64,000 nucleotides of DNA from an uncultured Planctomycetia bacterium (GCA_964422295.1 CAYRAM010000015.1:3272-67271), one strand, 5' to 3'. Counted from the first letter of the stretch, positions 10,640 to 46,443 are shown. Made by a program: numbers and translations. The notes: a model not told the origin generated them from the sequence alone.

Positions 10640-10796
10640 TCCCTCGCCAAATTTAGAAGATGAAACGTGGTACAACTTGACTCAATTCCGTCTAACATTT
10701 GTAATATCTGGCAAGCCGAATGTGGATTCGTGCCTCAAACTCTGAGATTGTGAGCATGAATCCAGTGCACGAGGCACTCTGGGTTACGGTGTACCT

Positions 10797-10834
10797 TGGG
10801 GGTCTGTGAGATTTTTGGGGGTCTGTGAGATTTT
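10797..10834. repeat. Perfect 19-bp tandem direct repeat
   Basis: TGGGGGTCTGTGAGATTTT at 10797-10815 and 10816-10834, ending 46 bp upstream of the gmd ATG. Confidence 0.9.
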
Positions 10835-10880
10835 CCACGATGGGGAGAACCCAAAAACATTCAGAATTGATTTCCAATCG

Positions 10881-13708: not shown

Positions 13709-13801
13709 TGAATTGCGATCCGGAAAGTTAGCCAAGTTCACAGATTCGCTCAATCCAGCGATAAAATTGTTTCAACAACCCTTTAGATTCTCTAGGTGTC
13801 A

Positions 13802-18780: not shown

Positions 18781-18811
18781 TCAGAAACGGCAGTCGAGAG
18801 ACGGGAGCACT

Positions 18812-23971: not shown

Positions 23972-25353
23972 CCACTCCCATGACCCCCATGAGAACCCTC
24001 TGGTACATGGGGGCGAAGACCCGACTTTGTGAGGAATTTATCGATGGTGCGGTCAGAGATCTGGTTTCACCTGGGGCGACGATCCTCGATGCCTGTTCCG
24101 GTACAGCAGCTGTGGGGCGCTGGTTTGCGGGGGACTACCGAATTCTGGCCAATGATGTTCAGACATTTGCATCTGTGATCGCCAGGGCCCATTTGGAAGT
24201 ATCGACGCAATGGTCCGAGGAACTGGATTCCCTCGAACCTGAGTCAGACCTTGCCATGGCGAGGGATACAAACCATGCACTCCTTGCAGAAGAGTATGGT
24301 GATGCACTGGAACAGGAAGAGCAACTCCTGGATAGAATCCTGTCAGGTACGGGGGATGAGAATGCTCTCGAAGAGTATCGAAAATTTTGTTCGATATCCC
24401 CGATGCCTTATCAGGAGATTTGCACCGATTCCGGAGATGATTCAGACCCATACCGATCGGTTCGACAACAACTCCCTCAAATGTTGAAGCAGCGTCGATC
24501 AGAGCCTGAGACAACCCCCGCCGTGATGTGCACCGCATATTGGGGACAGGTCTATTTTGGATTGAAACAAGCCATCATGATCGACTCGATTCGCCAGGCG
24601 ATCCGTGAGATTTCCCTGGAATCTGAGTTTGGTGCCGAGAAAAGGTCTTTGTATCTCGCAGCACTCCTTCATGCGGTCTCGGTGAGCACTTCCGGAACCA
24701 GTCACTTTGCCCAACCCCGATCGGTCATCAAAGACTCAGAGTTGATGGCTGTTGCAAAAAGAAGATCCATCGATATCGAAGAGCAATTTGAATTGGCGCT
24801 CGAAGCGATACGCCGTGAAGTATTAGAGCGTCCCCGATTGTCGGGAAACAAAGTGTTCTGCAGCGAGATTGACGACCTCATCGGCGAGGAAAGCCCCATC
24901 TCAGGGAATTCGTTGGATCTCGTCTACCTCGATCCACCCTACACCGCTGATAATTACAGTCGCTTCTATCATGTACTCGAAACACTGGCTCTCTACGACT
25001 ACCCCGAATTGCAGTGTCGCGGGGATGAATTGACCAAGGGCCGATACCCCGTTCGAGAAAATCGATTCTCCTCTGATTTCTGCAGTGGCTCCCATGTCGA
25101 AAGTGCATTCCGCAGAGTGGCAGAGGGTTGTATTCGTCATGGGGCCAAGCTGTTGATCTCCTATTCGGGAGATTCCGGATTGCTCACACGAAAGTGGCAG
25201 AGAGAGGGTCATGACAAACCTGCTGCCAAGCTCCGAGAGTTGATGCTCGAGTATTTCAGCAGCGTGGAGATTCGGGAGCAGCAATTGATGCATTCCGGGC
25301 AAGGCGACACCAACAAATCGGTGCAGGAGTTGCTCCTGCTGTGCGAGGCCTGA
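23968..25353 (+). CDS. DNA adenine methyltransferase (D12/FokI-type), copy 1
   Basis: YMGAKTRL, motif I DACSGTAAVG, ILANDVQ, motif IV YLDPPY, SRFYHVLETL, SSDFC, LLISYS. Confidence 0.88.
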   Translation: MTTPMTPMRTLWYMGAKTRLCEEFIDGAVRDLVSPGATILDACSGTAAVGRWFAGDYRILANDVQTFASVIARAHLEVSTQWSEELDSLEPESDLAMARDTNHALLAEEYGDALEQEEQLLDRILSGTGDENALEEYRKFCSISPMPYQEICTDSGDDSDPYRSVRQQLPQMLKQRRSEPETTPAVMCTAYWGQVYFGLKQAIMIDSIRQAIREISLESEFGAEKRSLYLAALLHAVSVSTSGTSHFAQPRSVIKDSELMAVAKRRSIDIEEQFELALEAIRREVLERPRLSGNKVFCSEIDDLIGEESPISGNSLDLVYLDPPYTADNYSRFYHVLETLALYDYPELQCRGDELTKGRYPVRENRFSSDFCSGSHVESAFRRVAEGCIRHGAKLLISYSGDSGLLTRKWQREGHDKPAAKLRELMLEYFSSVEIREQQLMHSGQGDTNKSVQELLLLCEA

Positions 25354-26564
25354 ACTTGCGTTGGCTGGGAAACAAGACCGCTTTGCTGGATGAGATTCTG
25401 TCCGTCGCCAAGGCTGCCGGATTCACAGGCGGAACCGTGTGCGATCTTTTCGCAGGAAGTGGATCGGTAGGCAGGTTCTTCCGATCTCGTGGCTGTCGGG
25501 TGATCTCCACCGATCTGATGAATTGTTCCCTCGTCTTCCAAAAGACATATCTGGAGACGGAGTCTGCGCCGACATTCGCAGGGATCGAGAATCTCTGGTC
25601 AGATTTAGAGCCCCTCGATCACTCCCGATTGTCCGCATTAGATGAGGCTCAGCGGCCTTCTTGGATTCCCTTTCTGCAGGTGGCGAACTATTTGGAAGCC
25701 GAGCTCGAGCCCCACAAGGGAATTCTGTATCGACAGTTTTCTCCTCAAGGTACTGAGGGAAGACATTATCTAACCGGTGAAAATGCCGCTCGCATCGATG
25801 CAATCTTGAACGCAGTGCGGGATTGGCGAATCTCCGAATTGTTAACTGACCAGGAGGTGTGGCTACTTCTCGCCAGTTGCATCGATGCCGTCGACCGAGT
25901 GGCAAACATATCGGGCACCTACGGAGCGTATCTAAAGAAGTTTCAAAAAAGTGCCTTGAGACCCTTGGAATTGAGGGCCCCTGCGATCGTTCCCGGACCG
26001 ATCGGGAGTGCTCACAGAAAAGATGCACTGGATTGGATCGAGAGCGTGGAGTGTGAACTGCTCTACATCGATCCACCCTACAATCAGCGTCAGTATCCAG
26101 CGAATTATCATCTTCCCGAAATTTTGTCGTTGCTTCCCTTTGAAGAGTCCGATGAACAGATCGAGGCATCGATCTATGGAAAGACGGGATTGATCCCCTG
26201 GAAAGACAAGGCATCACCCTTGTGCAGTCGACGCGGCGATGAATGTTTTCGTTCGATGAAAAGTTTGATTGAAGATTCAAATGCGAAAATCATCGTCTTT
26301 TCCTATAGCGAGGAAGGAATCCTCAATCGCGAAGAATTGGAATCCCTGCTGGGGGATTGGTCCGATACGGGATCAGGCTCAAATGTATCACTGTTGGAGA
26401 TACCCTATCGGCGATTTCGCAGCGATTCAGAGGAGAGTGGTTCTTCCGGTCAAGTGGGGCGAATCTTCAAGCCCGCGCCTGGGAGATCTCCGGATGAGGT
26501 ACAGGAGTGGTTGTTTGTTGCCATGAGAAAATCGGACTCTGAGCGCGCAGGGAGAGTCTGTTGA
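25341..26564 (+). CDS. DNA adenine methyltransferase (FokI/NlaIII-type), copy 2
   Basis: RWLGNKTALL, motif I DLFAGSGSVG, VDRVANISGTYGAYLK, motif IV YIDPPYNQRQYPANYHL, FSYSEEG, EWLF. Confidence 0.92.
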   Translation: MRGLNLRWLGNKTALLDEILSVAKAAGFTGGTVCDLFAGSGSVGRFFRSRGCRVISTDLMNCSLVFQKTYLETESAPTFAGIENLWSDLEPLDHSRLSALDEAQRPSWIPFLQVANYLEAELEPHKGILYRQFSPQGTEGRHYLTGENAARIDAILNAVRDWRISELLTDQEVWLLLASCIDAVDRVANISGTYGAYLKKFQKSALRPLELRAPAIVPGPIGSAHRKDALDWIESVECELLYIDPPYNQRQYPANYHLPEILSLLPFEESDEQIEASIYGKTGLIPWKDKASPLCSRRGDECFRSMKSLIEDSNAKIIVFSYSEEGILNREELESLLGDWSDTGSGSNVSLLEIPYRRFRSDSEESGSSGQVGRIFKPAPGRSPDEVQEWLFVAMRKSDSERAGRVC

Positions 26565-26926
26565 ACTCCAGAGCCTTGGGTGCAATATCCTTTTTTCTTG
26601 CAGGTATCGCGGTCGCGCTGGCGGCGCTGGGAGCACACCTTCTCGAAGGGCGTTGGCATGACGAGGCCGCCCCTGGGCAGTACGCGACAGCGACCCGGAT
26701 TCTGTTTTGGCACTCCATCGGAATTTGGATCTGTTCGCGGCCCGGCTCGGGGATGGCTGCTTGCGGGTGGAGTATGTTTATCTCCGTAATCTTGTTTTGT
26801 GTTCCCGTTTACCTCTTGTCCCTCGGAGCTCCCAGTTGGCTCGGCATGATCGCCCCGCTCGGTGGATTGGGTCTGATCGGATCATGGTTTTGGATGGCCT
26901 GGAGTCAATATCGATCTTCCCATTAG
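26561..26926 (+). CDS. DUF423 (YgdD/TMEM256) family membrane protein
   Basis: ALAALGAH, ILFWHSIG, LFCVPVYL, WLGMIAPLGGLGLIGSW; TTGA overlap with MTase 2. Confidence 0.88.
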   Translation: MNSRALGAISFFLAGIAVALAALGAHLLEGRWHDEAAPGQYATATRILFWHSIGIWICSRPGSGMAACGWSMFISVILFCVPVYLLSLGAPSWLGMIAPLGGLGLIGSWFWMAWSQYRSSH

Positions 26927-27175
26927 CAGCAACTCTTCCATAACTTCAATATCAGTAAGAAGTTCAGGAGTTTTCAGAGAAAAACTAACTCGCAGAATGT
27001 AAATATTTTCAAAATAAATGTAAACCAGAGTGTCGCATGGTCCCATCCGAAAGGTTACATTTGGCCGTATAGGCAAGGGAGTTCTATGAGGCTCGCCTGT
27101 CTTAATTTATTGAACGGTCACATTCCAGCCTCTCGTCACTTCGCTTTGTTGATGAGAGTTATTGGGGAATTGAAT

Positions 27176-30010
27176 ATGAAATTCACGCTGGTTCAGCGAA
27201 ATTGTAAGAACTCTGTATCGATTGCAGCAAAGATCTGTTGCAGCAATCTTAGGGTAATTTCACGTTCAAGTTTTATATGGCTGGTATTGGCACTTTCCCT
27301 CGGGGTTCCTTCCCTTTCTGAAGCGGCCGGGAAACATCTGCGAAATTTTGCTCCAGGGCCGATCGCAGACTCTCTTGCTGCGGCGGCATTGGTCGATGCG
27401 ACCCACACCCTCGGGGGGCCGACAGCATCCACACTCGAATTGGATTGGGTGAGGGAAATCCCTGACCGCGGTGTTCAATTGGCGTGGAAACAATCGTTGG
27501 GTGGAATCCCTGTCCGCGAAGCGATCGGCCGTATGTGGTTGATTCCGGTGGGATCCGGTTCTTGGCAATGCCATTATCGGGCATTTTCATGTATTGCTTG
27601 GCAAGAGCCGCACTCACCAGATGCCCTCGTATCCGCAGATACTCTCGACCCCGGTCTTCAATTTTCGGGACGGATTTGGAGTAAACCAGTACTCGAGTAC
27701 GTGATGGGGGAAGGTACACAGGCTCAACTGGTCTGGGTCACCCATGGAACTTCTAGAGATGAGAGCCTCCACAGTACTTTACGGATCGATTTCTCTGCGC
27801 TGACCGGTGAAAGGTTGGCGGTGGAGGAAGTCGTTTGCTCACTCGATGTCAGTGGGTCGATCTTTGCCAATCGCACACAAGGCACTGGACCCCAGGGAAG
27901 CGCAGGGAACGGCATTCAGCCGACCAGCGGAGTGCGCGTCACTGGTGGAGGATCCGTGACCCATGCGGATGTCAATGGCGATTATTTCCTGTCTTCCGGT
28001 CAAACCAGTTATACGGTTCTTGCCGAACTCGAAGGAGTCTGGGGAAGCGTCAATAGTTCGGTTGCAGCAAATGTCACCGCTTCCGCACAAGCGAGTTCCG
28101 GCACCCTTGATATCGTCATGGATGGCAATGGAGATGCAAATCTCACTGCCCAATTGAATGCGTTTCATTATGTGGACCAAGGATATCGACTCTTCACTGA
28201 ATCTGCAGGAGGCTTTCCCGCCATGTCTACTCCTGTCAATGCGACGACGGGGATGGCCGGCACATGCAATGCTTTTTACGATCCATTCCTACAACTTCTG
28301 CGCTTTTTGCGGGCGGGCGGAAGTTGTGTAGACAGCGCATACTCCAGCGTTGTGCTCCATGAGTTTGGTCATCACGTCGTCAACTCCCTGAACTTGGCTC
28401 AGGGTGCCTTTGGAGAGGGATACGGAGATTCCCTTGCCATCGTCTTCCTTCAGGATGGGGTGATCGGAAGGGACTTTTCAGGGCCGGGAGGTCATGTTCG
28501 AAATGTTTCTGCCTCATCGGTGACCGTGCCGTGCACCTCCAGTATTCACTTCTGTGGACAGGCACTGGGGAAATTCTGGTTCGACCTAGGGAATAACTTG
28601 CGATCAGATCTCGGCAATGTGAGTGGTCAGCAAGCTCTCGAAGAACTTTTTGTCGATTGGTCCGCCCTAACGATAGGGGGGATCAATGGATATCCCATCC
28701 GCGATGAAATGGTGCTCGAAGTATTGATCGCAGACGACATCGACAACAATCTCGCTAATGGAACACCCCATTGGAACCAGATTTGTGCTGCCGCTACTAC
28801 AGGTGGATTGGCATGCCCCGATCTCTCTACCTTGATTTTGACCCTGTTGGCGGGGCCCGGTGAATTGATGGCACCACAAGTTCCTACGCCAGTGGCCTTC
28901 TCATGGGAAGGGATCTCCTCGAGTCCTGCTGCTGGTCAAGCAGAGATTCGCTACCGGGAGGTGGGCACAACCACTTGGCTCAGTGCACCGCTCGCAGTCG
29001 TTCCTAACTTCCGACTTGAGGGAGAAATCCCTCCGCAGAATTGCCTCGTTCCCCTTGAGTGGTATGCACGGGTTCCGGACCAGGGTGGCTTCGTTACCTT
29101 CTATCCACCGCTGGGCTCCAACCAACCGCTGTCGACAATGGTTGCTACTTCAATGATCTCAGTGCTGGAAGAGCCGCTCGCAAGTGATCCGGGGTGGAGT
29201 ACATCTTTGCCTTCAGATACTGCGCTCACGGGACGATGGGAGTACGGAGTTCCCAATGGAACTGCGGCACAAGCCTCTTCGGGGGTGGCTTCCAGCGCAG
29301 GTGATTCAGCGGGATACTTCACAGGTCTTGGATTACCGGGTGGGACGATCGGTGCGGATGACATCGATTTTGGTGATACCACACTGACCTCGACCAATTT
29401 CCTCTTGGACCCATCACTTCTCTATGAAGTGAGTTACTGGCGATGGTTCTGCAATAATGCGTCAGCCAGCACACCCGATGACATCCTGACCGTTTCGTTG
29501 AGTCTCGATGGAGGCAGTTCTTGGGCGGTGATCGAGGAGATCGGCCCGGGACATCCCCATGCGGGGGGAGGGTGGTTCAAAAACTCATTTGCGATAGAGC
29601 CGGGGAGTTCGCCAGGGAACATCTTCCAATTGCGATTCCATACCGGAGATTTGGGAGCCGGGAGTATCGTTGAAGCAGGGGTCGATCTCATCGAGGTCCA
29701 AACCGTCGATTGCGAGACCACCGGGCCTCAACCCGTGGATAACGACTTCATTTCCTCTGATTGCAACGGTGACGGTGTCCATGACTTGAGTGACGTGGTG
29801 CAGGTTCTGGAGGTATTGTTTGGTGTTACCGTCGACTTTTCCTGCGAGGACGCATGTGATTCAGACGATAACGGACAGATTGATATCAGCGACGCCATTC
29901 TCTTGCTTCAAGCGCTCTTCGAAGGGGTCGGTCCCACTCTGAATGGGGTTTGTGGACCGGATTTGACGACCGATGGACTTGACTGTCAGAACTTTCCATC
30001 CTGTCCTTGA
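27176..30010 (+). CDS. Secreted gluzincin (M36/M4-like) metallopeptidase with propeptide, MAM-like beta-sandwich and C-terminal dockerin-like domain
   Basis: TCNAFYD, VVLHEFGH, GEGYGD, YWRWF, IVEAGVD, C-terminal DCNGDGVHDLSD...DSDDNGQIDISDA...CGPD...C...CP. Start uncertain (ORF track 27086). Confidence 0.8.
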   Translation: MKFTLVQRNCKNSVSIAAKICCSNLRVISRSSFIWLVLALSLGVPSLSEAAGKHLRNFAPGPIADSLAAAALVDATHTLGGPTASTLELDWVREIPDRGVQLAWKQSLGGIPVREAIGRMWLIPVGSGSWQCHYRAFSCIAWQEPHSPDALVSADTLDPGLQFSGRIWSKPVLEYVMGEGTQAQLVWVTHGTSRDESLHSTLRIDFSALTGERLAVEEVVCSLDVSGSIFANRTQGTGPQGSAGNGIQPTSGVRVTGGGSVTHADVNGDYFLSSGQTSYTVLAELEGVWGSVNSSVAANVTASAQASSGTLDIVMDGNGDANLTAQLNAFHYVDQGYRLFTESAGGFPAMSTPVNATTGMAGTCNAFYDPFLQLLRFLRAGGSCVDSAYSSVVLHEFGHHVVNSLNLAQGAFGEGYGDSLAIVFLQDGVIGRDFSGPGGHVRNVSASSVTVPCTSSIHFCGQALGKFWFDLGNNLRSDLGNVSGQQALEELFVDWSALTIGGINGYPIRDEMVLEVLIADDIDNNLANGTPHWNQICAAATTGGLACPDLSTLILTLLAGPGELMAPQVPTPVAFSWEGISSSPAAGQAEIRYREVGTTTWLSAPLAVVPNFRLEGEIPPQNCLVPLEWYARVPDQGGFVTFYPPLGSNQPLSTMVATSMISVLEEPLASDPGWSTSLPSDTALTGRWEYGVPNGTAAQASSGVASSAGDSAGYFTGLGLPGGTIGADDIDFGDTTLTSTNFLLDPSLLYEVSYWRWFCNNASASTPDDILTVSLSLDGGSSWAVIEEIGPGHPHAGGGWFKNSFAIEPGSSPGNIFQLRFHTGDLGAGSIVEAGVDLIEVQTVDCETTGPQPVDNDFISSDCNGDGVHDLSDVVQVLEVLFGVTVDFSCEDACDSDDNGQIDISDAILLLQALFEGVGPTLNGVCGPDLTTDGLDCQNFPSCP

Positions 30011-30354
30011 CGATCAGAATGCATGAAAGTATGGATGCATTTGTCTAATAATCCCCAACTCCCGAGGCGTAGGTACTATTCCATCCCCTCCGCAGGCTTT
30101 ATCATTGAGGGCGGTACACATTACCGAATTTGACAACAAATGTTTGATCCCTTTGACTACTGAGATGGACGCTTCACCGGGTAGATTCCGGGATGACTTA
30201 TCCTTGCGATATTTCTGGTGCAGCAATAGTTGCAATAGCCTTTGCTTCTACTTCCTAAAGTTCACGGGATCAGTCATAGATTTCCCTCCATGTGTGCCTT
30301 GTGTTGCTGGTTGTAATTCTACAAATGGTTAATACAGCGAGGTGGGGGGAAGGC

Positions 30355-33339
30355 ATGAAGATGGATCAAACGGGATCCTCTAGTTTGAACGATTTCGTTC
30401 AGGATGCGACCGAGGTGCGGACGTGGAGAAGCCGAGTGCTTCTTGCGATCAGTATCCTGTTGATTTCGCCATTCATGAGTGGCGTCATTTCAGCCCAGGA
30501 AGTTTCAGAATCGTCCGAATGGCCCGAGCGACCTCATGCCGAAGAAGTCGATACATCCCTGCGACATTTTCTTCAATTGCGCCCACAGGTACTGGCAGAG
30601 CGGGATGAGTTCGGCCGTCTCTACCTTTTCGGTGCTCCCTTGGCTTGGGGGCCTACCGATGAAGAATTAATCCGAAGTTTTCTTCACGATCACGCCACTC
30701 TGTTCGGGATCGCGGCCGACGATGTGGAGTTGATCTTTGCGACCGATCTTCTCACAAGGGATGCGACTGTTCTTGCATATCGACAGGTGAGGGATGGAAT
30801 CCCGGTCGAACACAGTGCCCTTCGATTTCTGACTCGGCCTGACTCCGAGACGGGTGAAAGGGTGCTAGTTTACGCAGCAGGACACATTGCATTGGAGCCT
30901 GTTGGTGGATTTGCCGAAGTCCAAATTGATAGTGAAACCGCTCTTCAGAGAGCCCAATCCCAGTGGAGGGGCTCAAGCGATTTGAAGTGGCAACCTGCCC
31001 GCTTGGTCATCGAGGCGAGTGCTTCTCGCCGCAGTGAGAGTCGCTTGGTTTACCGGATCGTTGCAACAGGGATGCGCCCCGAACAGGTCGAGGATTGGGC
31101 GATCACTGTGGATCCGGAGAGTGGGCAAATCATCGAGGTCAAGAACCAGATCCTCCACGTCGATGTCGAGGGCAATGTCTCTGCTCAGGCGACGACCGGG
31201 GATGAGCCTGATACCGCGACCAATCCGCCACAGTCGGTACCCCTAGAAGGGCTCAACGTCTCCATTTCTGGAGGTGCAAGCGCGGTTTCCCAAGCAGGAG
31301 GAGACTTTGTCATTCCCCATGGTGGAGTGGATCCTGTGCAGGTGCTGGCAAACCTCACGGGACAGTGGTGCTCAGTGATCAACATCGATGGTGCAAATCT
31401 ATCTTCCTCGTCGACGGTGACTCCCCCGGGCCCTGCAAATCTGGTGATGAATCCGGTCTACGATCCGAAGACATTGGCGGAGGTCAACGCCTACCTTTAC
31501 ACCCATTTGACCCATGACTTTATTCGGTCGAGAACGACGGGTGTCCCGGGCATCGATGTTCCCATCACCGCAAATGTCAACATCCTCGATACCTGCAATG
31601 CGTTTTTTAGCCCTGGTGAACAAAGCATCAATTTCTTCCAAGAGGGAGGAGGATGCGTCAACACCAGTTTCGCCAGTGTGGTTGCTCATGAGTATGGCCA
31701 CTTCATCGTCAATCGCCTGGGACTTGCTCAAGGGGGATTCGGTGAAGGTTATTCGGATGTCGTCAGTATGCTTCAATTTGATGATCCGATCATCGGTCGA
31801 GGATTTCTCGGCCCTGGAACCCAGGTCAGGGATCCGGTCGCAGCAAATATCCAGTACCCCTGTCCGAGCACATCAGTTCACACCTGTGGACAGATACTCG
31901 GTTCAGTCTTCTGGTTGATCCGGGAAGGATTCGGAACGTTGCTGGGATCCCAGCAGGGCTTGGAAGTCACTCAACAGCTCTTCGTCGATTGGTCATTGGT
32001 AACCATCGGTGGTGTGGGTGACTCCAGTGCGCATCCGGAGACAGCCATTGAGATTTTGACTCTGGATGACAACGACGGGAATCTTGGGAATGGAACCCCC
32101 AACTTTCAGATGCTCTGCGATGTCTTCACCAACCATTCCATCGATTGCCCAATTCCACCTCCGTTGACGCTGGTGCTCCCGGAGGGTTTGCCGGGGAACC
32201 TGGCTCCCAATGTCGCAGAATCGATCAGGATCTCTGCCCTCCCTGGAACGACGCAGGTGGACACCGGATCTGGACAATTGATCTTCCGGCAGGGAAGCAC
32301 AGGAATCTTCAGTATCGCTCCCTTGTCTTGGCAAGGTGGAGCCGATTTTATTGCCGATCTCCCTGGCCAGGGTTGTGGTGAGCCTGTGGAACTCTACTTC
32401 CGCTTCCTCGACCTTCAGGGAACGGAGCATCTGTTGCCTTCCGAGGGATCGAATTCCCCCTTCAGCCTTGAGGTGATCAGTCAATTCCAGGTGACCTTCA
32501 GTGACGACATGGAAACCGATACCGGTTGGTCGGTGGGTGAGCCCACCGATACAGCGACCACAGGAATGTGGGTGCGGGTTGATCCGATAGGAACCGCTGC
32601 GCAACCCAATGGCGGCCATGGGACAGGTGGTGGTTTGGCGTGGATTACCGGACAGGGTACGGTGGGTGGGTCATTGGGTGAAAATGACGTCGACGGTGGA
32701 GAAACGACTTTGAAGTCACCGGTGTTTGATTTGTCCGGATTTGTCAATGCGATCGACCCCGTGGAGATCTCCTATTGGCGTTGGTTTTCCAATGGCACTG
32801 GCGCATCTCCGTACACCGATACTGCTCGCATCGAGATCACGAACGATTTGACCACATGGGTGCCGGTAGAGGTACTTGGGCCTCTGAGTGGTCCTGATAC
32901 CAATGGCGGCTGGGTTTTCCATTCATTTGATATCACCACTTTCGTTCCCTTCTCGTCGACGATGCAAATGAGATTTGCCGCTTCTGACAATGACCAGGGA
33001 TCCATCGTTGAGATGGCCATCGATGATTTTCAAATCTCGCAGAAGATTTGCTTTGAAGGCCCCATCTTCAGGCGAGGAGATGCCAATGCGGATGGAAGTG
33101 TCGATGTATCCGATGCTGTGATGGTACTTCAGTATCTGTTTGAGGGTGCTGTCCTCACTTGTATCGATTCAGCCGATATTGGGGACAATGGAAGTGTCAA
33201 TATCGCTGATCCGGTGGGGATCGTCGGGTTTCTCTTTGGGGGTGGAGCACCACCGGCTGAGCCATATCCTGCATGTGGAATCGATCCCACGGACACCGAT
33301 GGATTGCCGGATTGCCAGTCGCACACAAATTGCCCCTGA
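30355..33339 (+). CDS. Paralogous secreted gluzincin metallopeptidase (FTP/PepSY-like propeptide, MAM-like, dockerin-like)
   Basis: YRQVRDGIPVEHS propeptide, TCNAFFS, VVAHEYGH, GEGYSD, ISYWRWF, IVEMAIDD, FRRGDANADGSVDVSDA...CGIDPT...CP. ATG 30355. Confidence 0.85.
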   Translation: MKMDQTGSSSLNDFVQDATEVRTWRSRVLLAISILLISPFMSGVISAQEVSESSEWPERPHAEEVDTSLRHFLQLRPQVLAERDEFGRLYLFGAPLAWGPTDEELIRSFLHDHATLFGIAADDVELIFATDLLTRDATVLAYRQVRDGIPVEHSALRFLTRPDSETGERVLVYAAGHIALEPVGGFAEVQIDSETALQRAQSQWRGSSDLKWQPARLVIEASASRRSESRLVYRIVATGMRPEQVEDWAITVDPESGQIIEVKNQILHVDVEGNVSAQATTGDEPDTATNPPQSVPLEGLNVSISGGASAVSQAGGDFVIPHGGVDPVQVLANLTGQWCSVINIDGANLSSSSTVTPPGPANLVMNPVYDPKTLAEVNAYLYTHLTHDFIRSRTTGVPGIDVPITANVNILDTCNAFFSPGEQSINFFQEGGGCVNTSFASVVAHEYGHFIVNRLGLAQGGFGEGYSDVVSMLQFDDPIIGRGFLGPGTQVRDPVAANIQYPCPSTSVHTCGQILGSVFWLIREGFGTLLGSQQGLEVTQQLFVDWSLVTIGGVGDSSAHPETAIEILTLDDNDGNLGNGTPNFQMLCDVFTNHSIDCPIPPPLTLVLPEGLPGNLAPNVAESIRISALPGTTQVDTGSGQLIFRQGSTGIFSIAPLSWQGGADFIADLPGQGCGEPVELYFRFLDLQGTEHLLPSEGSNSPFSLEVISQFQVTFSDDMETDTGWSVGEPTDTATTGMWVRVDPIGTAAQPNGGHGTGGGLAWITGQGTVGGSLGENDVDGGETTLKSPVFDLSGFVNAIDPVEISYWRWFSNGTGASPYTDTARIEITNDLTTWVPVEVLGPLSGPDTNGGWVFHSFDITTFVPFSSTMQMRFAASDNDQGSIVEMAIDDFQISQKICFEGPIFRRGDANADGSVDVSDAVMVLQYLFEGAVLTCIDSADIGDNGSVNIADPVGIVGFLFGGGAPPAEPYPACGIDPTDTDGLPDCQSHTNCP

Positions 33340-34398: not shown

Positions 34399-35067
34399 TT
34401 GCCGAGCGAGTCGGAAGAGAACTACCTGAGGGCAATTTGGAAACTGGCAGGAGATGATCCTGACGAGTGGATTCCTACGGGGATGGTCGCTGAAAGGGTG
34501 GGGGTTTCCCCGCCATCTGCAACCAGCATGGTTCAACAATTGTGCGAGAGAGGTTGGCTCAATCACAAGAGATACCACGGTGTTTGTCTGACCGCTGAGG
34601 GTCGGGAGTTGGCTTTGCAAACAGTGCGAAGGCATCGCATTCTCGAAACATATCTCGCCAAAATTCTCGAAGTTCCTTGGGACAAGGTTGATTCAGAGGT
34701 GGAGCGCCTCGAGCACTCAGTCAGCGAGGAACTGATCTGCAGAATGGAAGAAGCACTCGATTTTCCCGATCGGGATCCACACGGGTCCCCGATTCCAGAT
34801 CGTCAGGGGAATCTGCCAAGTTCCAAGGACTTGTATTTGTTTCAGGCTCCCCTGTCCATCCCATTGGAGGTGGTCAGGGTGGTCGATGCACTGCCGGAAG
34901 TGTTGAACTGGCTCGGTGAGAGGGGTGTCAAGCCTGGAGTCACGGTGACTATTGAATCAAGGGAGCCTGGCGGGGGGCCCGTTTTATTGGGAGTCCCGGA
35001 TGGTGACCGGTCATTTGCGATCAGTGGGGAGTTGGCCAGATCCATCTGCGTCAAGGAAATCAACTGA
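34399..35067 (+). CDS. mntR: DtxR/MntR/TroR family metal-dependent transcriptional repressor with FeoA domain
   Basis: SEENYLRAIW, VSPPSATSMV, LTAEG...VRRHRILETYL, EVERLEH, DPHGSPIP; TTG start after GGAGG. Confidence 0.93.
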   Translation: MPSESEENYLRAIWKLAGDDPDEWIPTGMVAERVGVSPPSATSMVQQLCERGWLNHKRYHGVCLTAEGRELALQTVRRHRILETYLAKILEVPWDKVDSEVERLEHSVSEELICRMEEALDFPDRDPHGSPIPDRQGNLPSSKDLYLFQAPLSIPLEVVRVVDALPEVLNWLGERGVKPGVTVTIESREPGGGPVLLGVPDGDRSFAISGELARSICVKEIN

Positions 35068-36336
35068 TGGATCAGATTCATCAGAGTTGTGTATTTTTTC
35101 AGGAGGATGATGCTGTTGAGAGGAAGTGACGTCCTCGTCCTCGAGCATGACCATCAGGGATTCGTCCAAGTGGTGCTCGATCCGATGGGCAGGCTCTTCC
35201 AGGTGATCCGGAGGAAGGCCCAATCGTTCCGCAGCAAATCTTTGCCAGAGGCTACGTTTGCGCAGCAGCGTCTTGGCGATCCTTTTTCCTCGCCCTTGAG
35301 GTATTCCATTGCGAATGAAACCCATTAATCCCAACTGAAGGTATGCAAACCCTGAGATGCTGACCAGACCCGGTGATGCCAGTTTTTCTCCGGTGTTTGC
35401 GAGTTGGAGTGCATCTGCGAGAAGATCTTCTCTTGCAACTCTCAATCTCCACAAGAGCAATCTCGAAGCAACAGGGATGACTCCGCGGTTTGGCGCAAAA
35501 ATTACACAGACAAGCAACAGCACACCAGCAGTGACAGCGATCATTCCCGGTACGTTTGTGTCCACAAAATGAATGGCAGCAAATGTACCCAGCAAAGCAG
35601 ATATGACCCCAGTCAACCCACTGACCAGCATCATTGCTCCAAATCGGTCACAGAGAATGCCGGCGATGGTCGGCGGTACCGCAATCATCGCCACGACCAG
35701 AATCGAACCAACCGCTTCGAAACATGACACTGCAGTAATTGCGACAAGGATGAGAAGTCCGCGTTCCAGGGTTCTCACCGGCAGGCCCATCGACCTGGCG
35801 AGAACGGGATCGAACGCACAGATCTTCCATTCTTTCCAAAAAATGAGCAGAGCGGTCAAGTTGAGAAGGAGTGCCAGTGAGATTGAGACGATGGATCTTG
35901 GGAGGGAATATCCAAAGACATCCATCCTTTGAAAGTGAGTAAACTCGATCAGGCCATGCAATACGCAACTGGGATCGAGGTCGATTTCACGGGTGTACAT
36001 TTCAATCAGAATGATCCCCCCTGAAAACAGGGTTGTGAAAACAACTCCAAGGGCTGCTCCCCCGTCCATTTCTGCGCGATCTCTCAACCACTCTGCCACC
36101 AGCGAAAGGAACAAGGCTGCGATGACTGCGCCTGTAAACATGGGAGCGACTTCTCTGCTTCCCGTGAAAATGAAACCGATGATGAGCCCAGGAACAACTC
36201 CATGGGCGATAGCGTCACCGAGCATGGCGCGATTTCTCAAAGTCAGGTGGACCCCTACGATGGAGCAGGAAAGTGCCGCCAGAACAGCGACGATATAAAT
36301 GTCCAGCATCGCAGGGTTGAGCAGGATCTCCATCAT
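35011..36336 (-). CDS. Mn/Zn/Fe ABC transporter permease (TroD-like) with C-terminal DtxR-like tail
   Basis: AMLGDAIAHGVVPG, EAVGSILVVAMIAVPP; tail RKRSLWQRFAAERLGL...AHRIEHHL. Confidence 0.9.
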   Translation of the reverse strand: MMEILLNPAMLDIYIVAVLAALSCSIVGVHLTLRNRAMLGDAIAHGVVPGLIIGFIFTGSREVAPMFTGAVIAALFLSLVAEWLRDRAEMDGGAALGVVFTTLFSGGIILIEMYTREIDLDPSCVLHGLIEFTHFQRMDVFGYSLPRSIVSISLALLLNLTALLIFWKEWKICAFDPVLARSMGLPVRTLERGLLILVAITAVSCFEAVGSILVVAMIAVPPTIAGILCDRFGAMMLVSGLTGVISALLGTFAAIHFVDTNVPGMIAVTAGVLLLVCVIFAPNRGVIPVASRLLLWRLRVAREDLLADALQLANTGEKLASPGLVSISGFAYLQLGLMGFIRNGIPQGRGKRIAKTLLRKRSLWQRFAAERLGLPPDHLEEPAHRIEHHLDESLMVMLEDEDVTSSQQHHPPEKIHNSDESDPSVDFLDADGSGQLPTDRK

Positions 36337-41252: not shown

Positions 41253-42188
41253 TTGAAGGGCGGGGGTTTGGCAAAGATTTTGGAACTCAATGCCACCATC
41301 GAAGAGCGCGAGGATTTTTCTGACGAATTGGCCATCTTCAAGGTACGCCTCGATGAATCCCTCCCAGAGGGTGCTTGGTTCGTCCCTGGCCAATACATGG
41401 TCATCGGAGTCAATAACACTGAAGATCCGGACCTCGGTGGTGTTCAAAGGCCGATGTCGATCGCATCCGAACCTGCACAAAGGAACCATGTCGAGTTCTA
41501 CATTCGACGAGTGGGAAAACCGGAATCCAAAAACCCTCTGACGCACAGCCTGTTTCGACTTCGTGAAGGGGAGAGGGTGTTTCTGAGACCCAAACCCAAG
41601 GGGCACTTCACAATCCCGGGGACTGTCGGGGATGATGATTCACGTTGGCGGATTCTCGTCAGTGCAGGGACCGGGCTGGCCCCCTTTGTTTCAATCGTCA
41701 GAGATGATTTGACGCATGGTCGGGAATTGACCCGGACGTGCATCATTCACGGCGCATCACGCCCGGGTGATCTCGGTTACAGAACAGAACTGGAATCCCT
41801 CGCTGAAAATCATGGCCTCGTCTATCTGCCGACGGTCAGCCGACCGGCAGATCATCCTGACTGGGCTGGATTGCAAGGGCGAGCGGAAGATCGCTTTTTG
41901 CCAGATGCCATGGAAGTTCTCGAAGATCGTATGGGATTGTCTCCGGGCACTCTTGGACCTGACCTCGCAGTGGTCTTGGTGTGCGGACTCCAGGGGACAA
42001 TTGGTGAATCACTGACGCGATTGGCAAAGCGTGGCTTCGTGCCGGCGGAGAAAAAAATCCGCAAAAAGTTGGAGATTCCAGATTCGCTTCCCGGTTCATT
42101 TTTCTTTGAACAGTATGATTCTGATCCGGTGATCGACCTCGAAAATGAGTCCCTTATTCAGGAATTGAAAACGGACTTGGGCCTCTAA
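41253..42188 (+). CDS. Ferredoxin/flavodoxin--NADP+ reductase family oxidoreductase
   Basis: FVPGQY, RPMSIAS, GTGLAPFVS, IIHGAS, LVCG, FFEQY. Start TTG 41253 or 41268. Confidence 0.87.
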   Translation: MKGGGLAKILELNATIEEREDFSDELAIFKVRLDESLPEGAWFVPGQYMVIGVNNTEDPDLGGVQRPMSIASEPAQRNHVEFYIRRVGKPESKNPLTHSLFRLREGERVFLRPKPKGHFTIPGTVGDDDSRWRILVSAGTGLAPFVSIVRDDLTHGRELTRTCIIHGASRPGDLGYRTELESLAENHGLVYLPTVSRPADHPDWAGLQGRAEDRFLPDAMEVLEDRMGLSPGTLGPDLAVVLVCGLQGTIGESLTRLAKRGFVPAEKKIRKKLEIPDSLPGSFFFEQYDSDPVIDLENESLIQELKTDLGL

Positions 42189-42246
42189 TTGGCGTGTTAA
42201 ACTCTGGATATGATGGCTTGGCTTGTGGAAGATATCTGCGGAAGAA

Positions 42247-45200
42247 ATGAGCCCAATGTCCAACAATTCGTCTGAAAAATTGACTCTCCATCTGCACCAT
42301 GGAAGTGAATCACGGCAGATTTCCACTGCCGGTGTCAGTAGCATTACCATCGGTCGCGCTGAAGATTGCACGATATGCCTCGATATTCCAAAGATCAGCA
42401 GAGTTCACGCTGAAATCAGAATCGATGGTTCCGACTTTCGTTTGATCGACAAGAGATCTTCCAATGGCACGTTTCTAAACGGGGACCAGATTGAAACTGC
42501 CCGGCTTCGCCCTGGAGATCGTATCGAAATTGGCGAAGCGGTGATCGAAGTAAAAGATGCCACTTCAGTGGCAGACAGGCCCAAGTCGGCAAGAAAGAAA
42601 CCGCCGGGCTCACCGGCACCCAAAGTTCCTCGAACAAAAAAGCCTGCTGCTGTCGGACGCGGTGAAACCGGCCGTGAGCCTGAAAATGGAAATGCGACGC
42701 CGCTGCGACGAAGTTCGCCTTCATTGATCAACAGGCTGGCAGATTTTTCACTGCTGTTGTTGCTGATCGTTCTCGTAGGCCTGGTGGCAAAGGAGTACTC
42801 CCAAGGCCCCAGAAAAGTCGTCAAAGAAGTGCAACCTGACACGGTTACCGCTCCCATCGATGGAGAAGTCACCGAGATCGCCCGCCCGCTCGACGATGGA
42901 GAAGTCTCCCTCAAACTCCTCGAGCAGGAGATGGCAGCGGGAGAATTGGGGTGGGATGCCATCGAGGGATTGCGTTCGATCGCCCGGAGGCAACCGGGGA
43001 GCAGGGCTGCGAAGACCTGTCTGGACCTGGCCGAGGCGCTCGAAGGCGTCAGAGGGACCACTCTCATCAGCCAACGAGAGTCCCTTGAGGAGTTGTTGAC
43101 ACCGATGGTCTTGAGGCGGGAATTCGGCGAATCTTCACTGATCGCCCGCTTTCTTGCCAGGGCGGATTCGAGCCGCGAGGCGAACCGTTACTGGACGGAA
43201 AGGGCGGACCAGATTGGCAGGATGGCGCGGGCAGACCTTCGCCAGTTGGATGAGCAGGTGACAGGACTTCTCGATTTGAGGAGACCGGGAGAAGCCCTGC
43301 GTCTCGTTGCAGCCTCTCGCCAACGATACAGTGGTTTTCAGGAATTTGAGACGATGTTGTCGGACCTGGTCGAAGGGGTCGCCGACCTTAAATTGAAGGA
43401 GCCGCCGAGGAGAGTCAATGCGCCGCGAGAGTGGAGCGAGTTGCTCTCTCGATCTCGCAGATATCTGGAGGAGTGCCGCTACTCCGACCTTGCTCCCGTG
43501 CTGTACCGGGCTCTCTCTCTGGAGCTCCCTACAACAGATCACATCCAGGCCCTCGAATTATTGGTCAAGGCCGGGGCTCTCACCGCAATGTTTGAAGAAT
43601 TTATTGAAGGAGCCTCCGGAGGAGATGTGACTGTGAAAATCTCCGGTTTCCCGATGCGGGTTCTTCGGGCAACCCGGGATGGCGTCGAGTTGGAAAGAGA
43701 GATCGCCGGTGGAAAGCAGACTTTGGAGAAGAGTTGGCTGGAGGTCACTTCGACCGACAAATCGGCCCTCTTCAGATCTGTTCCCCATTCCGTTGAAGGG
43801 GTCATGGGTCTGGTTTTTCTCGCTGAAGTGGCGGGGGACGATGACGGCTTTCACCGATCGTTGGTCAATTTGCACCGGAGAAAAAAAGGGGAAGGCCTGG
43901 CTGAAGCGATTCTGATGAAGTCGCGACCGGGAATCCCGCCGGGGTCAAAATTTGAAGAGTTTGACGGCCGACTGGTTACCAAACTTGAGAAGGAGAATCT
44001 GCTCGAGGAACGCCGATTGAAAAAAGAGCGTGAGCGTGAAGCGATTGCAGAAGCAAAGCGACTGCAAAAATCAAAGAAGATCGAAGTCATCGTCGCATAC
44101 GCTCAACTATTGCGTGAGCAAGGGTCTTTCAGTCTGGCGGATCAAATGCTGAGGGAAGTGGTCGCCAAATCCGACGATGCGGAGCAATCTGCAGAAGCGA
44201 GAAGACTCCTCGCAGATCCCTACCTGGCACTGGTTCCACTCCGTGAAAGCGGGGATCCGAAAAATCGCATCGATCTGTTCATCTTGGGGGATGGCTACCA
44301 GGTGGACGACGATCAGCAATCCCAATTTCTGAATCATGCCAAAACGTGTGAGAGGCTGCTCTTCTCTGTGGATCCCTATCGGGAGTATGAGCAGTACTTC
44401 AATTGCTCGGCGGTTCATCTTCAATCGGTCGACTTTGGAGTCTCCAGGGAACCCGGGGAGATCAATAAGGATACCCCCCTCGGTTGCCTCGTTCGCTATG
44501 ACGTCTTGACTTCCAATGCAGGAAAGGTGTTCTCGATCACTGGTCGTCTTGGGGAAGCGGGGAAAGACCGCCAGACGGTCGTCATCGCCAATGACGTTGC
44601 GGGTGTTGCCACCGGTGGCGGGGGGGTGACCAGCTTGCCGAAGGGCGCGTTGGGCCTCGTCCACCACGAGGTTGGTCACTCCTTTGGCGGTTTGAATGAT
44701 GAATACGACAATGAACCAGGCCAGGATCCGGATAAGCAACCTCCTCCACCGAGAGATGCAATCGTTCCCACTCGACCGGGACCTCCCAACCTGATGCATG
44801 GCAGTGACAAGGCCGATGTGGCCTCGAAAGTGATTTGGCAAGAGTGGATCGATGCAGAGGATCGCTGGTGGAACAACAGCACCGTAGGTCTGTTTGAGGG
44901 GGGGGACCGCAAACCCTTCCACGTCTGGCGACCCCAACTGTCGTGCATGATGAGAGATTTGAGTGGGTTCTGTGTCGTATGCATGGAACACATGGTGAAG
45001 CAGATCTATCGCAATGTCCGCCCCGTGGACAGAGTGGATCCGGAACCTGGAGAATTGGTGCTCGAAAAGGCGGATGAGGATGAAATCATCCTCAAAGTCT
45101 GGACGCTGCAACCTCGTACTCATGATCTGGAGGTGACGTGGAGAGTACTCTCCTATGGTCTCCAGAAGCCTGCGGGAGCGGGGGGGGAGCCCGCCACAGG

Positions 45201-45429
45201 TCAGACCGCCGTGAAAGACCAGCGACAGGGTGAACTCTGGAGGAGATCCCAAAGCGGACTCGATGCCAGCGGCAAGACGGTCCGTGCTGCCCAATTGAGA
45301 GCAAAAGATTTAGAGCCGGGTTGGCATCGCGTGCGTTGTTCCATCAAAGATCCGACCCCGTGGGTGCTGAGGGATGACGAAGGATTATTGAAGCAGGAAT
45401 TGGAATGGTGGGTGGAAGTTCGACCCTGA
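42247..45429 (+). CDS. FHA domain / transmembrane / helical / M64 (IgA-peptidase-like) metallopeptidase fusion protein
   Basis: FHA: ITIGR...ISRVHAEI...LIDKRSSNGTFLNG. TM: FSLLLLLIVLVGLVA. M64: RIDLFILGDGY, HHEVGHSFGGLNDEY, GLFEGG, WRPQLSCMMR, FCVVC. Confidence 0.85.
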   Translation: MSPMSNNSSEKLTLHLHHGSESRQISTAGVSSITIGRAEDCTICLDIPKISRVHAEIRIDGSDFRLIDKRSSNGTFLNGDQIETARLRPGDRIEIGEAVIEVKDATSVADRPKSARKKPPGSPAPKVPRTKKPAAVGRGETGREPENGNATPLRRSSPSLINRLADFSLLLLLIVLVGLVAKEYSQGPRKVVKEVQPDTVTAPIDGEVTEIARPLDDGEVSLKLLEQEMAAGELGWDAIEGLRSIARRQPGSRAAKTCLDLAEALEGVRGTTLISQRESLEELLTPMVLRREFGESSLIARFLARADSSREANRYWTERADQIGRMARADLRQLDEQVTGLLDLRRPGEALRLVAASRQRYSGFQEFETMLSDLVEGVADLKLKEPPRRVNAPREWSELLSRSRRYLEECRYSDLAPVLYRALSLELPTTDHIQALELLVKAGALTAMFEEFIEGASGGDVTVKISGFPMRVLRATRDGVELEREIAGGKQTLEKSWLEVTSTDKSALFRSVPHSVEGVMGLVFLAEVAGDDDGFHRSLVNLHRRKKGEGLAEAILMKSRPGIPPGSKFEEFDGRLVTKLEKENLLEERRLKKEREREAIAEAKRLQKSKKIEVIVAYAQLLREQGSFSLADQMLREVVAKSDDAEQSAEARRLLADPYLALVPLRESGDPKNRIDLFILGDGYQVDDDQQSQFLNHAKTCERLLFSVDPYREYEQYFNCSAVHLQSVDFGVSREPGEINKDTPLGCLVRYDVLTSNAGKVFSITGRLGEAGKDRQTVVIANDVAGVATGGGGVTSLPKGALGLVHHEVGHSFGGLNDEYDNEPGQDPDKQPPPPRDAIVPTRPGPPNLMHGSDKADVASKVIWQEWIDAEDRWWNNSTVGLFEGGDRKPFHVWRPQLSCMMRDLSGFCVVCMEHMVKQIYRNVRPVDRVDPEPGELVLEKADEDEIILKVWTLQPRTHDLEVTWRVLSYGLQKPAGAGGEPATGQTAVKDQRQGELWRRSQSGLDASGKTVRAAQLRAKDLEPGWHRVRCSIKDPTPWVLRDDEGLLKQELEWWVEVRP

Positions 45430-45507
45430 TGGCACCATGATGCCATCGTGCCGCCCGCGAAGCCCTTCACAGGGGTTCTCACCTCATCTGTGAAAAGAGG
45501 TCTGCCT

Positions 45508-46338
45508 GTGTCAGAACTGAAGACCATCGCTATCACCAGCGGCAAAGGGGGCGTTGGAAAAACCCATCTTTCTGTGGCAGCGAGTATCGAATGGGCCCGC
45601 CGTGGACAACGGGTCATCCTTGTCGATATCGATCTGAACACCGCCAATGCCCACATCTACCTCTCGGTCAAAGATCCCCGTTGGACTCTCAGAGATGTCT
45701 TGGAGAAGAATTGCTCATTGGAACAGGCGCTTATCGAGATTCCTGAAAGTTTCTGGGGAGGTGGGAAGAGTTCCCCTGGTGGATCCCTCCACCTGCTGGC
45801 GGGTTCCATGGACGCCACAGATTTGCTGGGAATGTCGATTCAGGATCATCGGCGATTGCAGGGACTTCTGAACGGGTACGCAGAGCAGGCAGATATTCTG
45901 GTATTCGATACCGGTGCCGGGATCGACCATAATTTGTTGCTTTGTTGTGATTACTGCGAAGAGGTGCTGGTCGTCACCAATTCGGAGGCTTCCTCCAGAT
46001 CGGATGCCCTCAATGTCTTGATCTGTCTCAGCGTTCTCGACCGGCCGCCGTCACGTTGGCTGATTCCCAATATCGTCGAAGACCAAGTGCAAGGGAGAAG
46101 GCTCTTCGATCACTTTCAAAAGGAAACAGGTGACTCGGAGTTGAAGTGGGCCGGTGCCATTCGGGATGATGCCTCTCTCAAGGAGGCTGCCATCGTTGGG
46201 AGATTGGTGTCCATCGAAGAGCCGGGATCCATCGCTTCGGTGGATATCAGAAGTATTGCAACAGTGGTACTCGATCAGTTTGTGGAAGAGACCGATGGTG
46301 ACTTTATCAGCAGGATCGATGACATCATCGGCGGATGA
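45508..46338 (+). CDS. MinD/FlhG-like ParA-family ATPase
   Basis: Deviant Walker A TSGKGGVGKT, LVDIDLNTAN, FDTGAGI. GTG 45508 with GAGG RBS. Confidence 0.88.
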   Translation: MSELKTIAITSGKGGVGKTHLSVAASIEWARRGQRVILVDIDLNTANAHIYLSVKDPRWTLRDVLEKNCSLEQALIEIPESFWGGGKSSPGGSLHLLAGSMDATDLLGMSIQDHRRLQGLLNGYAEQADILVFDTGAGIDHNLLLCCDYCEEVLVVTNSEASSRSDALNVLICLSVLDRPPSRWLIPNIVEDQVQGRRLFDHFQKETGDSELKWAGAIRDDASLKEAAIVGRLVSIEEPGSIASVDIRSIATVVLDQFVEETDGDFISRIDDIIGG

Positions 46339-46388: not shown

Positions 46389-46420
46389 AAAAAAATTCCA
46401 GTGCGGGATCGCACTGGAAT
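46389..46420 (-). terminator. Rho-independent terminator downstream of rpmH
   Basis: 11-bp stem ATTCCAGTGCG-GGAT-CGCACTGGAAT with an adjacent A7 tract (U-tract on the minus strand). Confidence 0.8.
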
Positions 46421-46443
46421 CAAATTCAAAAACTGTTCGGGTT

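Follow-up and report, generated by a model that had tools for sequence, protein, structure and literature searches.

Peptidases of the M64 family carry the motif HEXXHXXXGXXD (PMC12402451). ThomasA was formerly the sole characterised member of the family, to which BF3526 has been added (PMC12402451). The latter enzyme trims the N-termini of pre-digested peptides. Its catalytic zinc ion is bound by H311, H315 and D322, with E312 as the general base and Y324 touching the scissile carbonyl, and E97 of its N-terminal beta-sandwich forms a hydrogen bond with the N-terminal residue of the substrate (PMC12402451). A second zinc ion is held by E323, C398, C409 and C412, a site also found in ThomasA (PMC12402451). 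In an analysis of the M64 sequence space, three clusters from Planctomycetota were noted, and they are uncharacterised (PMC12402451). Here, we describe an M64 protein of an uncultured Planctomycetia bacterium, encoded at positions 42247..45429 of the plus strand in a stretch of 64,000 nucleotides (GCA_964422295.1, CAYRAM010000015.1:3272-67271), hereafter the window. The gene codes, in this order, for a forkhead-associated (FHA) domain, a transmembrane (TM) helix, a helical solenoid, an M64 peptidase domain and an immunoglobulin (Ig)-like domain.

Our analyses show that the gene encodes a bitopic inner-membrane protein, apparently confined to Planctomycetota, whose N-terminus is inside and whose C-terminus is outside. 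Its predicted phosphothreonine reader in the cytoplasm and its predicted zinc peptidase beyond the membrane are both intact, and these parts are conserved as a unit. We regard the architecture, the topology and an active enzyme, taken jointly, as highly probable. An earlier reading of the same DNA, made from the sequence alone (hereafter the original prediction), had proposed this combination of domains and did not know it as characterised. Our literature search found no account of an FHA-M64 architecture, and the domains are known only by database annotation.

A single gene with a family of homologues

A single long open reading frame (ORF) is present at 42223..45429 on the plus strand of the window. 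It codes for 1060 residues from the ATG at 42247, and all residue numbers given here are counted from that codon; the coordinates of protein features refer to the same strand. A public protein collection contains a product that is 100% identical and has 1057 residues, which corresponds to a start at the ATG at 42256. As Met4 is invariant among the aligned homologues, the ATG at 42256 is probably the true start, and the choice between the two codons is immaterial.

A word-indexed search retrieved 13 full-length homologues with 44-81% identity. Each has both an FHA and an M64 domain in its precomputed annotation, and their sources are Planctomycetota or marine metagenomes. With a profile of the periplasmic part, we then searched 1.84 billion representative sequences and obtained ~35 clusters at 50% identity. 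Their proteins are 1030-1280 residues long, and the match begins shortly behind the membrane anchor and runs to the C-terminus. Among 32 diverse members, Pfam detects M64 in 32/32 and FHA in 27/32. When one genome was scanned for each GTDB species, 48 loci were obtained, all but four of which are labelled Planctomycetota or plain 'bacterium'; the closest, at 86%, is that of Planctomycetia bacterium TMED53. The homologues bear no other database names than 'M64 family metallopeptidase' or 'FHA domain-containing protein'.

A protein that joins two such different domains could in principle result from an error of assembly or gene calling that merged two separate genes. The chance of this is negligible. 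The uninterrupted ORF, with its parts in the identical order, is found in the 48 loci, which come from independent metagenome-assembled genomes (MAGs) and studies and range from 86% down to ~25-30% identity, and the public protein collection holds 13 full-length protein clusters with both domains. The occurrence of the same architecture in many independent assemblies thus excludes a fusion artefact and bears out the original prediction of a single gene. It had also called for sequence data to be checked for a false joint; contigs from four independent metagenome runs show no conflicting joints, a weak check given that coverage is patchy and the contigs are short and of low depth. This is thus a real and conserved gene of uncultured marine Planctomycetota.

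The FHA domain and the topology of the protein

The cytoplasmic FHA domain occupies residues 10-104 (42274..42558). Pfam FHA (PF00498) matches residues 33-96 with 73 bits against a cut-off of 20.7 (E 2.7e-20), and a PDB sequence search with residues 10-102 returned the FHA domains of GarA, OdhI and FhaA. Structural comparison agrees, as the FHA part of our model matches the FHA domains of GarA and FhaA (Rv0020c) in a Foldseek search of the PDB with template-modelling scores (TM-scores) of 0.75-0.87. The motifs that the original prediction had recognised are in place, namely G36-R37, S51-R52-x-H54 and N73-G74-T75. The residues expected to contact phosphothreonine are frequent among the 32 diverse members (R37 in 28/32, S51 in 26/32, H54 in 28/32 and N73 in 24/32), counts that include some members without the domain altogether. 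The domain is thus, by its sequence, a canonical FHA domain and a predicted phosphothreonine reader with intact contact residues, and it is predicted to bind phosphothreonine.

The FHA domain is followed by a disordered linker (residues 105-160; 42559..42726), with a predicted local distance difference test score (pLDDT) of 27-36 and only 17-19% identity across the family. As had been noted in the original prediction, it is basic and rich in proline: residues 105-165, 61 in total, comprise 10 Pro, 8 Arg and 6 Lys. Next comes the single TM helix, with a hydrophobic core at residues 164-182 (42736..42792) and a modelled helix spanning residues 160-185. The hydrophobic core has a Kyte-Doolittle value of 2.38, and every other segment of the protein is at or below 1.3. 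A conserved juxtamembrane E-Y-x-x-G-P motif, of which E183, Y184 and G187 are invariant in the homologue alignment, precedes a short periplasmic linker (residues 187-212; 42805..42882) that is also disordered, with pLDDT <50 in both of the models described below and 15-24% identity.

The protein has no N-terminal signal peptide and no second TM helix. We compared the 25 residues on either side of the helix in 30 family members. The mean net charge is +3.8 on the N-terminal side versus -0.4 on the C-terminal side, and the N-terminal flank is the more positive one in 27/30 members. In addition, the outer module has short relatives of ~450-480 residues, in which a signal peptide and a single TPR-like hairpin precede the M64 and Ig-like domains. 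The single TM helix, the lack of a signal peptide, the charge bias and the signal peptides of the short relatives together place the FHA domain in the cytoplasm and the solenoid, the peptidase and the Ig-like domain in the periplasm, as predicted from sequence features. This is the arrangement on opposite sides of the membrane on which the original prediction depended.

The M64 peptidase domain

The catalytic domain spans residues 658-925 (44218..45021). The Pfam family PF09471 matches from residue 663 with 79.9 bits against a cut-off of 26 (E 2.5e-22), and phmmer with residues 665-917 against the PDB found 3P1V (2e-13) and 4DF9 (6e-12). Foldseek likewise linked the modelled domain to BF3526 (9QDI, 4DF9; E 3e-15) and to BACOVA_00663 (3P1V; E 1.7e-14), the E-values for these structures being 3e-15 to 1e-13 overall. 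The TM-scores of these M64 matches are ~0.5 relative to the target, which also holds an extra domain, and the pLDDT of the model is >90 over the domain. No other part of the protein is as well conserved: mean identity is 82% among the close homologues and 45% among the diverse ones.

The catalytic motif HEVGHSFGGLND (H807-E-V-G-H811-S-F-G-G815-L-N-D818) agrees with the published HEXXHXXXGXXD. The full active-site motif HEVGHSFGGLNDEY covers residues 807-820 (44665..44706), and we took the roles of its residues from BF3526 (PMC12402451). By that alignment, H807, H811 and D818 are the predicted zinc ligands, E808 is the general base and Y820 corresponds to Y324. These residues and E819 are kept in 32/32 diverse members. 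A Cys cluster (44944..44982) is formed by C900, C909 and C912, which align with C398, C409 and C412 of BF3526 and are kept in 31/32 members; as E819 aligns with E323, the four residues are predicted to form a structural zinc site. The complete M64 domain with its HExxH motif and Cys cluster, as read earlier from the DNA, is therefore present with all its residues. Judging from these residues, the peptidase looks active.

The domain shares with BF3526 of Bacteroides fragilis and with BACOVA_00663, M64 enzymes of cluster CL-I, the catalytic fold (25-28% identity), the motif, the Tyr residue after the Asp ligand and the second zinc site, made up of a Glu and three Cys residues. In contrast to the planctomycete protein, those enzymes are soluble lipoproteins of ~400 residues whose N-terminal beta-sandwich helps to close the active site. 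Peptidase_M64_N (PF16217) has no match in our protein, and in the model helices directly precede the catalytic domain. Instead of the beta-sandwich, the planctomycete protein has a solenoid of 445 residues before the catalytic domain, an Ig-like domain after it, and the TM helix and FHA domain in addition. It is thus a member of M64 but not of the BF3526 architecture. Outside the motif, the residues of BF3526 that contact the substrate are not kept: R255 and Y256 of loop 3 fall in an alignment gap, and T789 is found at the position of Y286. Since these residues are not conserved and the beta-sandwich with E97 is absent, the cleavage specificity need not be that of BF3526.

ThomasA, the IgA protease of Thomasclavelia ramosa and founder of M64 (9QDH, 9I4Z, 9QA6), belongs to the same family, has the same motif and was also found with Foldseek (1.6e-9). 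It is more distant, at 14-15% identity, and differs in being a secreted, sortase-anchored, multidomain enzyme of a Gram-positive bacterium that recognises the Fab region of IgA. Nothing suggests IgA as a target in a marine planctomycete.

A family-specific solenoid and an Ig-like domain

Two AlphaFold2 models were used. The first covered the whole protein, with 13 sequences in the alignment; the FHA domain, TM helix and helical region were well defined in it, but the pLDDT of its M64 part was <50, and Foldseek with this full model gave FHA matches only. It was replaced by a second model of residues 193-1060 based on a 116-sequence alignment, with a mean pLDDT of 93.2 and a predicted TM-score (pTM) of 0.80.

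In the second model, residues 213-657 (445 residues; 42883..44217) form a long helical solenoid with pLDDT >90, which agrees with the helical repeats proposed earlier between the TM helix and the M64 domain. Beta-hairpins are inserted at residues 461-496 and 569-578. The region termed coiled coil in the original prediction appears in the model as one long charged helix (residues 579-609) within the packed solenoid. No Pfam family, TPR families included, matches the solenoid above threshold. Foldseek gave weak TPR-type matches, one to P58IPK (E 1.8e-3, probability 0.9) and others to SPY, for which the probability is 0.25-0.35 and the root-mean-square deviation large, so that, on the model, the region is best described as a TPR-like alpha-solenoid. 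Among the 1.84 billion representatives, it was found only together with the M64 module, and two of its residues are nearly invariant in the diverse members (W497 in 32/32 and R575 in 31/32). The peptidase is packed against this solenoid, which is a probable substrate- or partner-binding module, at the place of the N-terminal beta-sandwich of the Bacteroides M64 enzymes.

The C-terminal beta domain of the original prediction is also seen in the model, as residues 926-1060 (45022..45426) are all-beta and adopt an Ig-like beta-sandwich. The pLDDT is high except around residues 973-992, where it is ~80. Its Foldseek matches are weak (E ~3e-3) and comprise Ig/VNAR domains of the V-set and S-layer domains of Sap.

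Possible links between phosphorylation and proteolysis

The combination of a phosphothreonine reader and a peptidase on the two sides of the membrane raises the question of how they are linked. Whether the protein is under phospho-dependent control, by any route, appears to us to be evenly balanced. As the best explanation, to which we would give about an even chance of being right, we propose that a kinase directs the recruitment, clustering or positioning of the periplasmic peptidase through the FHA domain. A Hanks-type Ser/Thr kinase would phosphorylate a membrane-proximal protein; the target might be a partner or the kinase itself, or else lie in the FHA-M64 protein's own linker. The FHA domain, on its long flexible tether, would then dock on the resulting phosphothreonine and thereby recruit, cluster or position the peptidase, for instance beside a receptor kinase or an envelope complex. 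Extracytoplasmic proteolysis would thus be confined to the place and time of kinase activity, and the solenoid and Ig-like domains would choose the substrate or partner.

The original prediction had also envisaged that phosphorylation activates the protease through the membrane. This part did not hold up well, as a single TM helix between disordered and variable linkers argues against it and makes recruitment more plausible. The helix is flanked by ~55 disordered residues on the cytoplasmic side and ~25 on the periplasmic side, both 15-24% identical; because both linkers are disordered and poorly conserved, allosteric coupling is unlikely and recruitment or clustering is favoured. In an inside-out allosteric switch, a phosphothreonine on the FHA domain would alter the geometry of the TM helix or of a dimer, so that the solenoid-capped peptidase opens. 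Such a switch would make use of the same topology and the same intact sites as recruitment. The high pTM of 0.80 suggests that solenoid and peptidase are one rigid body, which could serve as a lid; the near-invariant W497 and R575, located in the solenoid beta inserts, hint at a functional contact; and the juxtamembrane E-Y-x-x-G-P motif is conserved. However, tethers of this length, disorder and low conservation transmit conformational signals poorly, and we consider the switch quite unlikely, with a dimer-based variant of it being possible. We infer both the link to kinases and the preference for recruitment over allostery.

The signal might also run in the opposite direction. In three members (P0060, P0068 and P0073), the FHA domain is replaced by a different cytoplasmic region of 290-400 residues before the TM helix. 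Helical motifs of the form 'LGxxLVxxGyL...' recur in this region, and two of the three members also have a CxxC...C cluster. Pfam offers no credible match to these N-termini, even when E-values up to 10 are admitted, and they are not kinases fused in place of the FHA domain. The repeats seem to us to resemble the MshEN repeats that bind c-di-GMP; Pfam gives no support for MshEN-type repeats at E up to 10, and we make no claim of it. The pattern fits an exchangeable cytoplasmic input module. Such modularity would suit signalling in either direction, including an outside-in sensor in which a peptide cue from outside the cell is bound or processed by the periplasmic part and the FHA domain, as the output, modulates a Ser/Thr kinase or another phosphoprotein in the cytoplasm. 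FHA proteins can regulate kinases or other enzymes, the best FHA sequence matches are of the GarA/OdhI type, and kinase genes adjoin the gene in some lineages (see below). We nevertheless find a sensor of this kind very unlikely: the disordered tethers pose the same problem of transmission, full conservation of the catalytic site is more in keeping with an enzyme than with a receptor, and Pfam finds no output enzyme domain on the cytoplasmic side.

Gene neighbourhood and Ser/Thr kinases

Directly upstream of the gene, a ferredoxin-NADP reductase-like (FNR-like) flavoprotein is encoded at 41253..42188 on the plus strand (Pfam FAD_binding_6 and NAD_binding_1). An FNR-like gene takes this position in every fetched locus whose peptidase is at least 42% identical and whose upstream flank is present. 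Downstream, at 45448..46338 on the same strand, lies a gene for a MinD/ParA-type P-loop ATPase (Pfam CbiA, AAA_31 and ParA), which starts 18 bp past the stop codon of the FHA-M64 gene, with no terminator-like site between the two. It has a KGGVGKT Walker A motif and scores 95 bits versus the MinD cut-off of 201.75. The MinD-like gene is found downstream only in the clade with at least 59% identity, wherever the downstream flank is present, and is absent from more distant members. Its product diverges faster than the peptidase, with 30-75% identity where the peptidase has 60-86%. A strong hairpin with a 12-bp stem and a T-run at 46394-46421 is a likely terminator; it separates the MinD-like gene from the position that rpmH takes on the opposite strand in relatives.

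A block of folK, folB and an SDR gene, together with rpmH, persists to more distant loci than the FNR-like and MinD-like genes. None of these genes could be retained as a partner in a conserved operon. Conservation of the FNR-like gene ends at 42% identity and that of the MinD-like gene at ~59%, the folK-folB-SDR block and rpmH look like plain synteny, and we assign no role to any of them. The neighbourhood looks like stable core-genome synteny rather than a dedicated operon.

The picture is different for kinases in distant members. An unbiased clustering of flanking ORFs placed a Ser/Thr kinase family in 9/24 loci, and Pkinase was the commonest Pfam family, with 7 of the 123 ORFs that lie up to 4 kb from the gene at 19 distant loci. 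At four loci, a kinase gene is the immediate neighbour of the FHA-M64 homologue: it is divergent at L036, convergent at L038, and upstream on the same strand at L045 and L048, with the kinase gene of L045 abutting the homologue. The four loci come from distinct sublineages and none of the kinases is an orthologue of another, so that the juxtaposition seems to have arisen repeatedly. The original prediction had recommended a search for co-occurring kinases, and its outcome was divided: they are the commonest neighbour family in distant members, and there are none in the window or in the fetched flanks of close relatives.

Two of these kinases have features of their own. That of L045 (5350-7980) has a TM segment and a C-terminal Cys-rich, zinc-finger-like region of the CxxCxGxG type. 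The kinase ORF beside the L048 homologue is 1355 residues long.

The neighbourhood also bears on a simpler possibility, that the protein is a constitutive periplasmic peptidase with a housekeeping or nutritional role and that its FHA domain serves as a phospho-independent anchor or assembly module, or as a minor regulatory add-on. It would trim imported or misfolded polypeptides, like its closest structures, which are those of peptide trimmers of Bacteroides (PMC12402451). Many short, secreted relatives do without an FHA domain, the stable housekeeping neighbourhood (folK-folB-SDR, the FNR-like gene and rpmH) suggests a core function, and the fetched flanks of the window's own clade contain no kinase gene. 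On the other hand, the phosphothreonine-contact residues of the FHA domain are kept family-wide, down to ~25% identity, which would be unexpected for a phospho-independent module; the BF3526-type N-terminal beta-sandwich with E97 is absent; and kinases recur beside distant members. We therefore consider a purely constitutive peptidase unlikely, while according it an appreciable residual chance.

Several observations weigh against kinase-directed recruitment. Some FHA-like domains of membrane proteins, such as that of SctD of the type III secretion system (T3SS), are structural and do not bind phosphothreonine. Neither the 64-kb window nor the fetched flanks of its relatives with at least 42% identity contain a kinase gene; a hidden Markov model built from the neighbouring kinases gave no candidate in the window at E <1e-10. 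Genes for PP2C phosphatases are not among the top 25 neighbour families, and a search for RNA runs found no expression data. The enrichment in kinases is significant if kinases represent at most 2% of genes, but not if they represent 5%, and the share of kinases in Planctomycetota is 0.02 to 8% (PMC11032199), a caveat as to the background. The immediate impact is modest, since the family is small (~35 clusters and 48 species-level MAGs), occurs in uncultured organisms only and has no known substrate.

Other features of the window

Elsewhere in the window, we noted an unusual transporter-regulator fusion encoded at 35011-36336 on the minus strand, in which an ABC-3 (Mn/Zn-type) permease carries at its C-terminus a DtxR-type Fe_dep_repr_C metal-binding/dimerisation domain. 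The fusion gene is part of a ZnuA/ABC operon and is conserved in L001, L003 and L006. The region 10000-14000 has a G+C fraction of 0.45-0.49 versus ~0.55 elsewhere in the window. It codes for a GDP-mannose 4,6-dehydratase (10806-11882), a GDP-fucose-synthase-like epimerase (11854-12828) and a GT11 fucosyltransferase (12815-13708), and is probably a horizontally acquired fucosylation cassette. Two adjacent ORFs for D12-class N6-adenine DNA methyltransferases (23968-25353 and 25341-26564) are followed by two ORFs of ~1000 residues devoid of Pfam matches (27086-30010 and 30292-33339); the region 23968-33339 may be a restriction-modification or defence module. Tandem paralogues at 18629-22335 code for DUF4140/DUF4139 proteins of 652 and 622 residues.

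Comparison with known systems

The protein has been catalogued by domain annotation and is uncharacterised as a system, and its link to kinases is suggestive. If kinase-directed recruitment is true, this would be new for envelope proteolysis in bacteria. Regulated envelope proteolysis in bacteria runs mostly from the outside to the inside, as for RseP/DegS and BlaR1, and this protein would be a candidate for the opposite direction. It would also provide a concrete extracytoplasmic output for the very large sets of Ser/Thr kinases of Planctomycetota. As modelled, its membrane-anchored, solenoid-bearing architecture widens M64 beyond one IgA protease and one peptide-trimming enzyme of Bacteroides. 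A further-reaching idea, which we put forward as speculative and rather doubtful, is that the family is a bacterial counterpart of regulated ectodomain proteolysis, in which a single-pass periplasmic metalloprotease has an exchangeable cytoplasmic reader, mostly FHA and in a few members the unrelated region of 290-400 residues. The reader would couple Ser/Thr phosphorylation, and possibly other signals, to the cleavage of specific envelope proteins, and the whole would be an inside-out proteolytic signalling device as yet undescribed in bacteria.

In its general layout, the protein resembles FhaB/FipA (Rv0019c), GltG, TagH/Fha1 from type VI secretion (T6SS) and SctD/YscD of the T3SS, all of which have an N-terminal cytoplasmic FHA domain, a linker, a membrane anchor and an extracytoplasmic part. 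In several of them, the FHA domain ties the protein to Ser/Thr kinase signalling. In contrast to the planctomycete protein, none of them has a peptidase. We considered whether it might nevertheless belong to one of these families and rejected this. NCBIfam matches cover the FHA region only, with scores far below the cut-offs for GltG (58.5 versus 650), FhaB (50 versus 125) and TagH (44.9 versus 120.25). The SctD model TIGR02500 gives 11.8 bits versus 86, and the Pfam match to Yop-YscD_cpl merely overlaps the FHA domain. There are no T3SS, T6SS or gliding genes near the gene, in the window or in the fetched loci.

For the outer part, BepA, which combines an M48 peptidase with a TPR domain, and the NlpI-Prc pair offer an analogy only, devoid of any sequence or family relationship. 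Both have a module of helical repeats through which a periplasmic protease receives specific protein substrates.

For control from within the cell, a comparable case is Rv1747, an ABC exporter of Mycobacterium tuberculosis. Its cytoplasmic FHA domains read phosphorylation by PknF and control a membrane machine with an outside output (PMC8339232); the FHA part of our protein also matched that of Rv1747 in the PDB sequence search. Rv1747 differs in being a transporter with two FHA domains whose own linker is phosphorylated, and it has no homology to our protein beyond FHA. An analogy, again devoid of any sequence or family relationship, can also be drawn with the eukaryotic ADAM sheddases, zinc proteases that span the membrane once and are regulated by phosphorylation in the cytoplasm (PMC4263450). 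In these type I metzincins it is the enzyme's own tail that receives the phosphate, whereas the planctomycete protein carries a phospho-reader instead.

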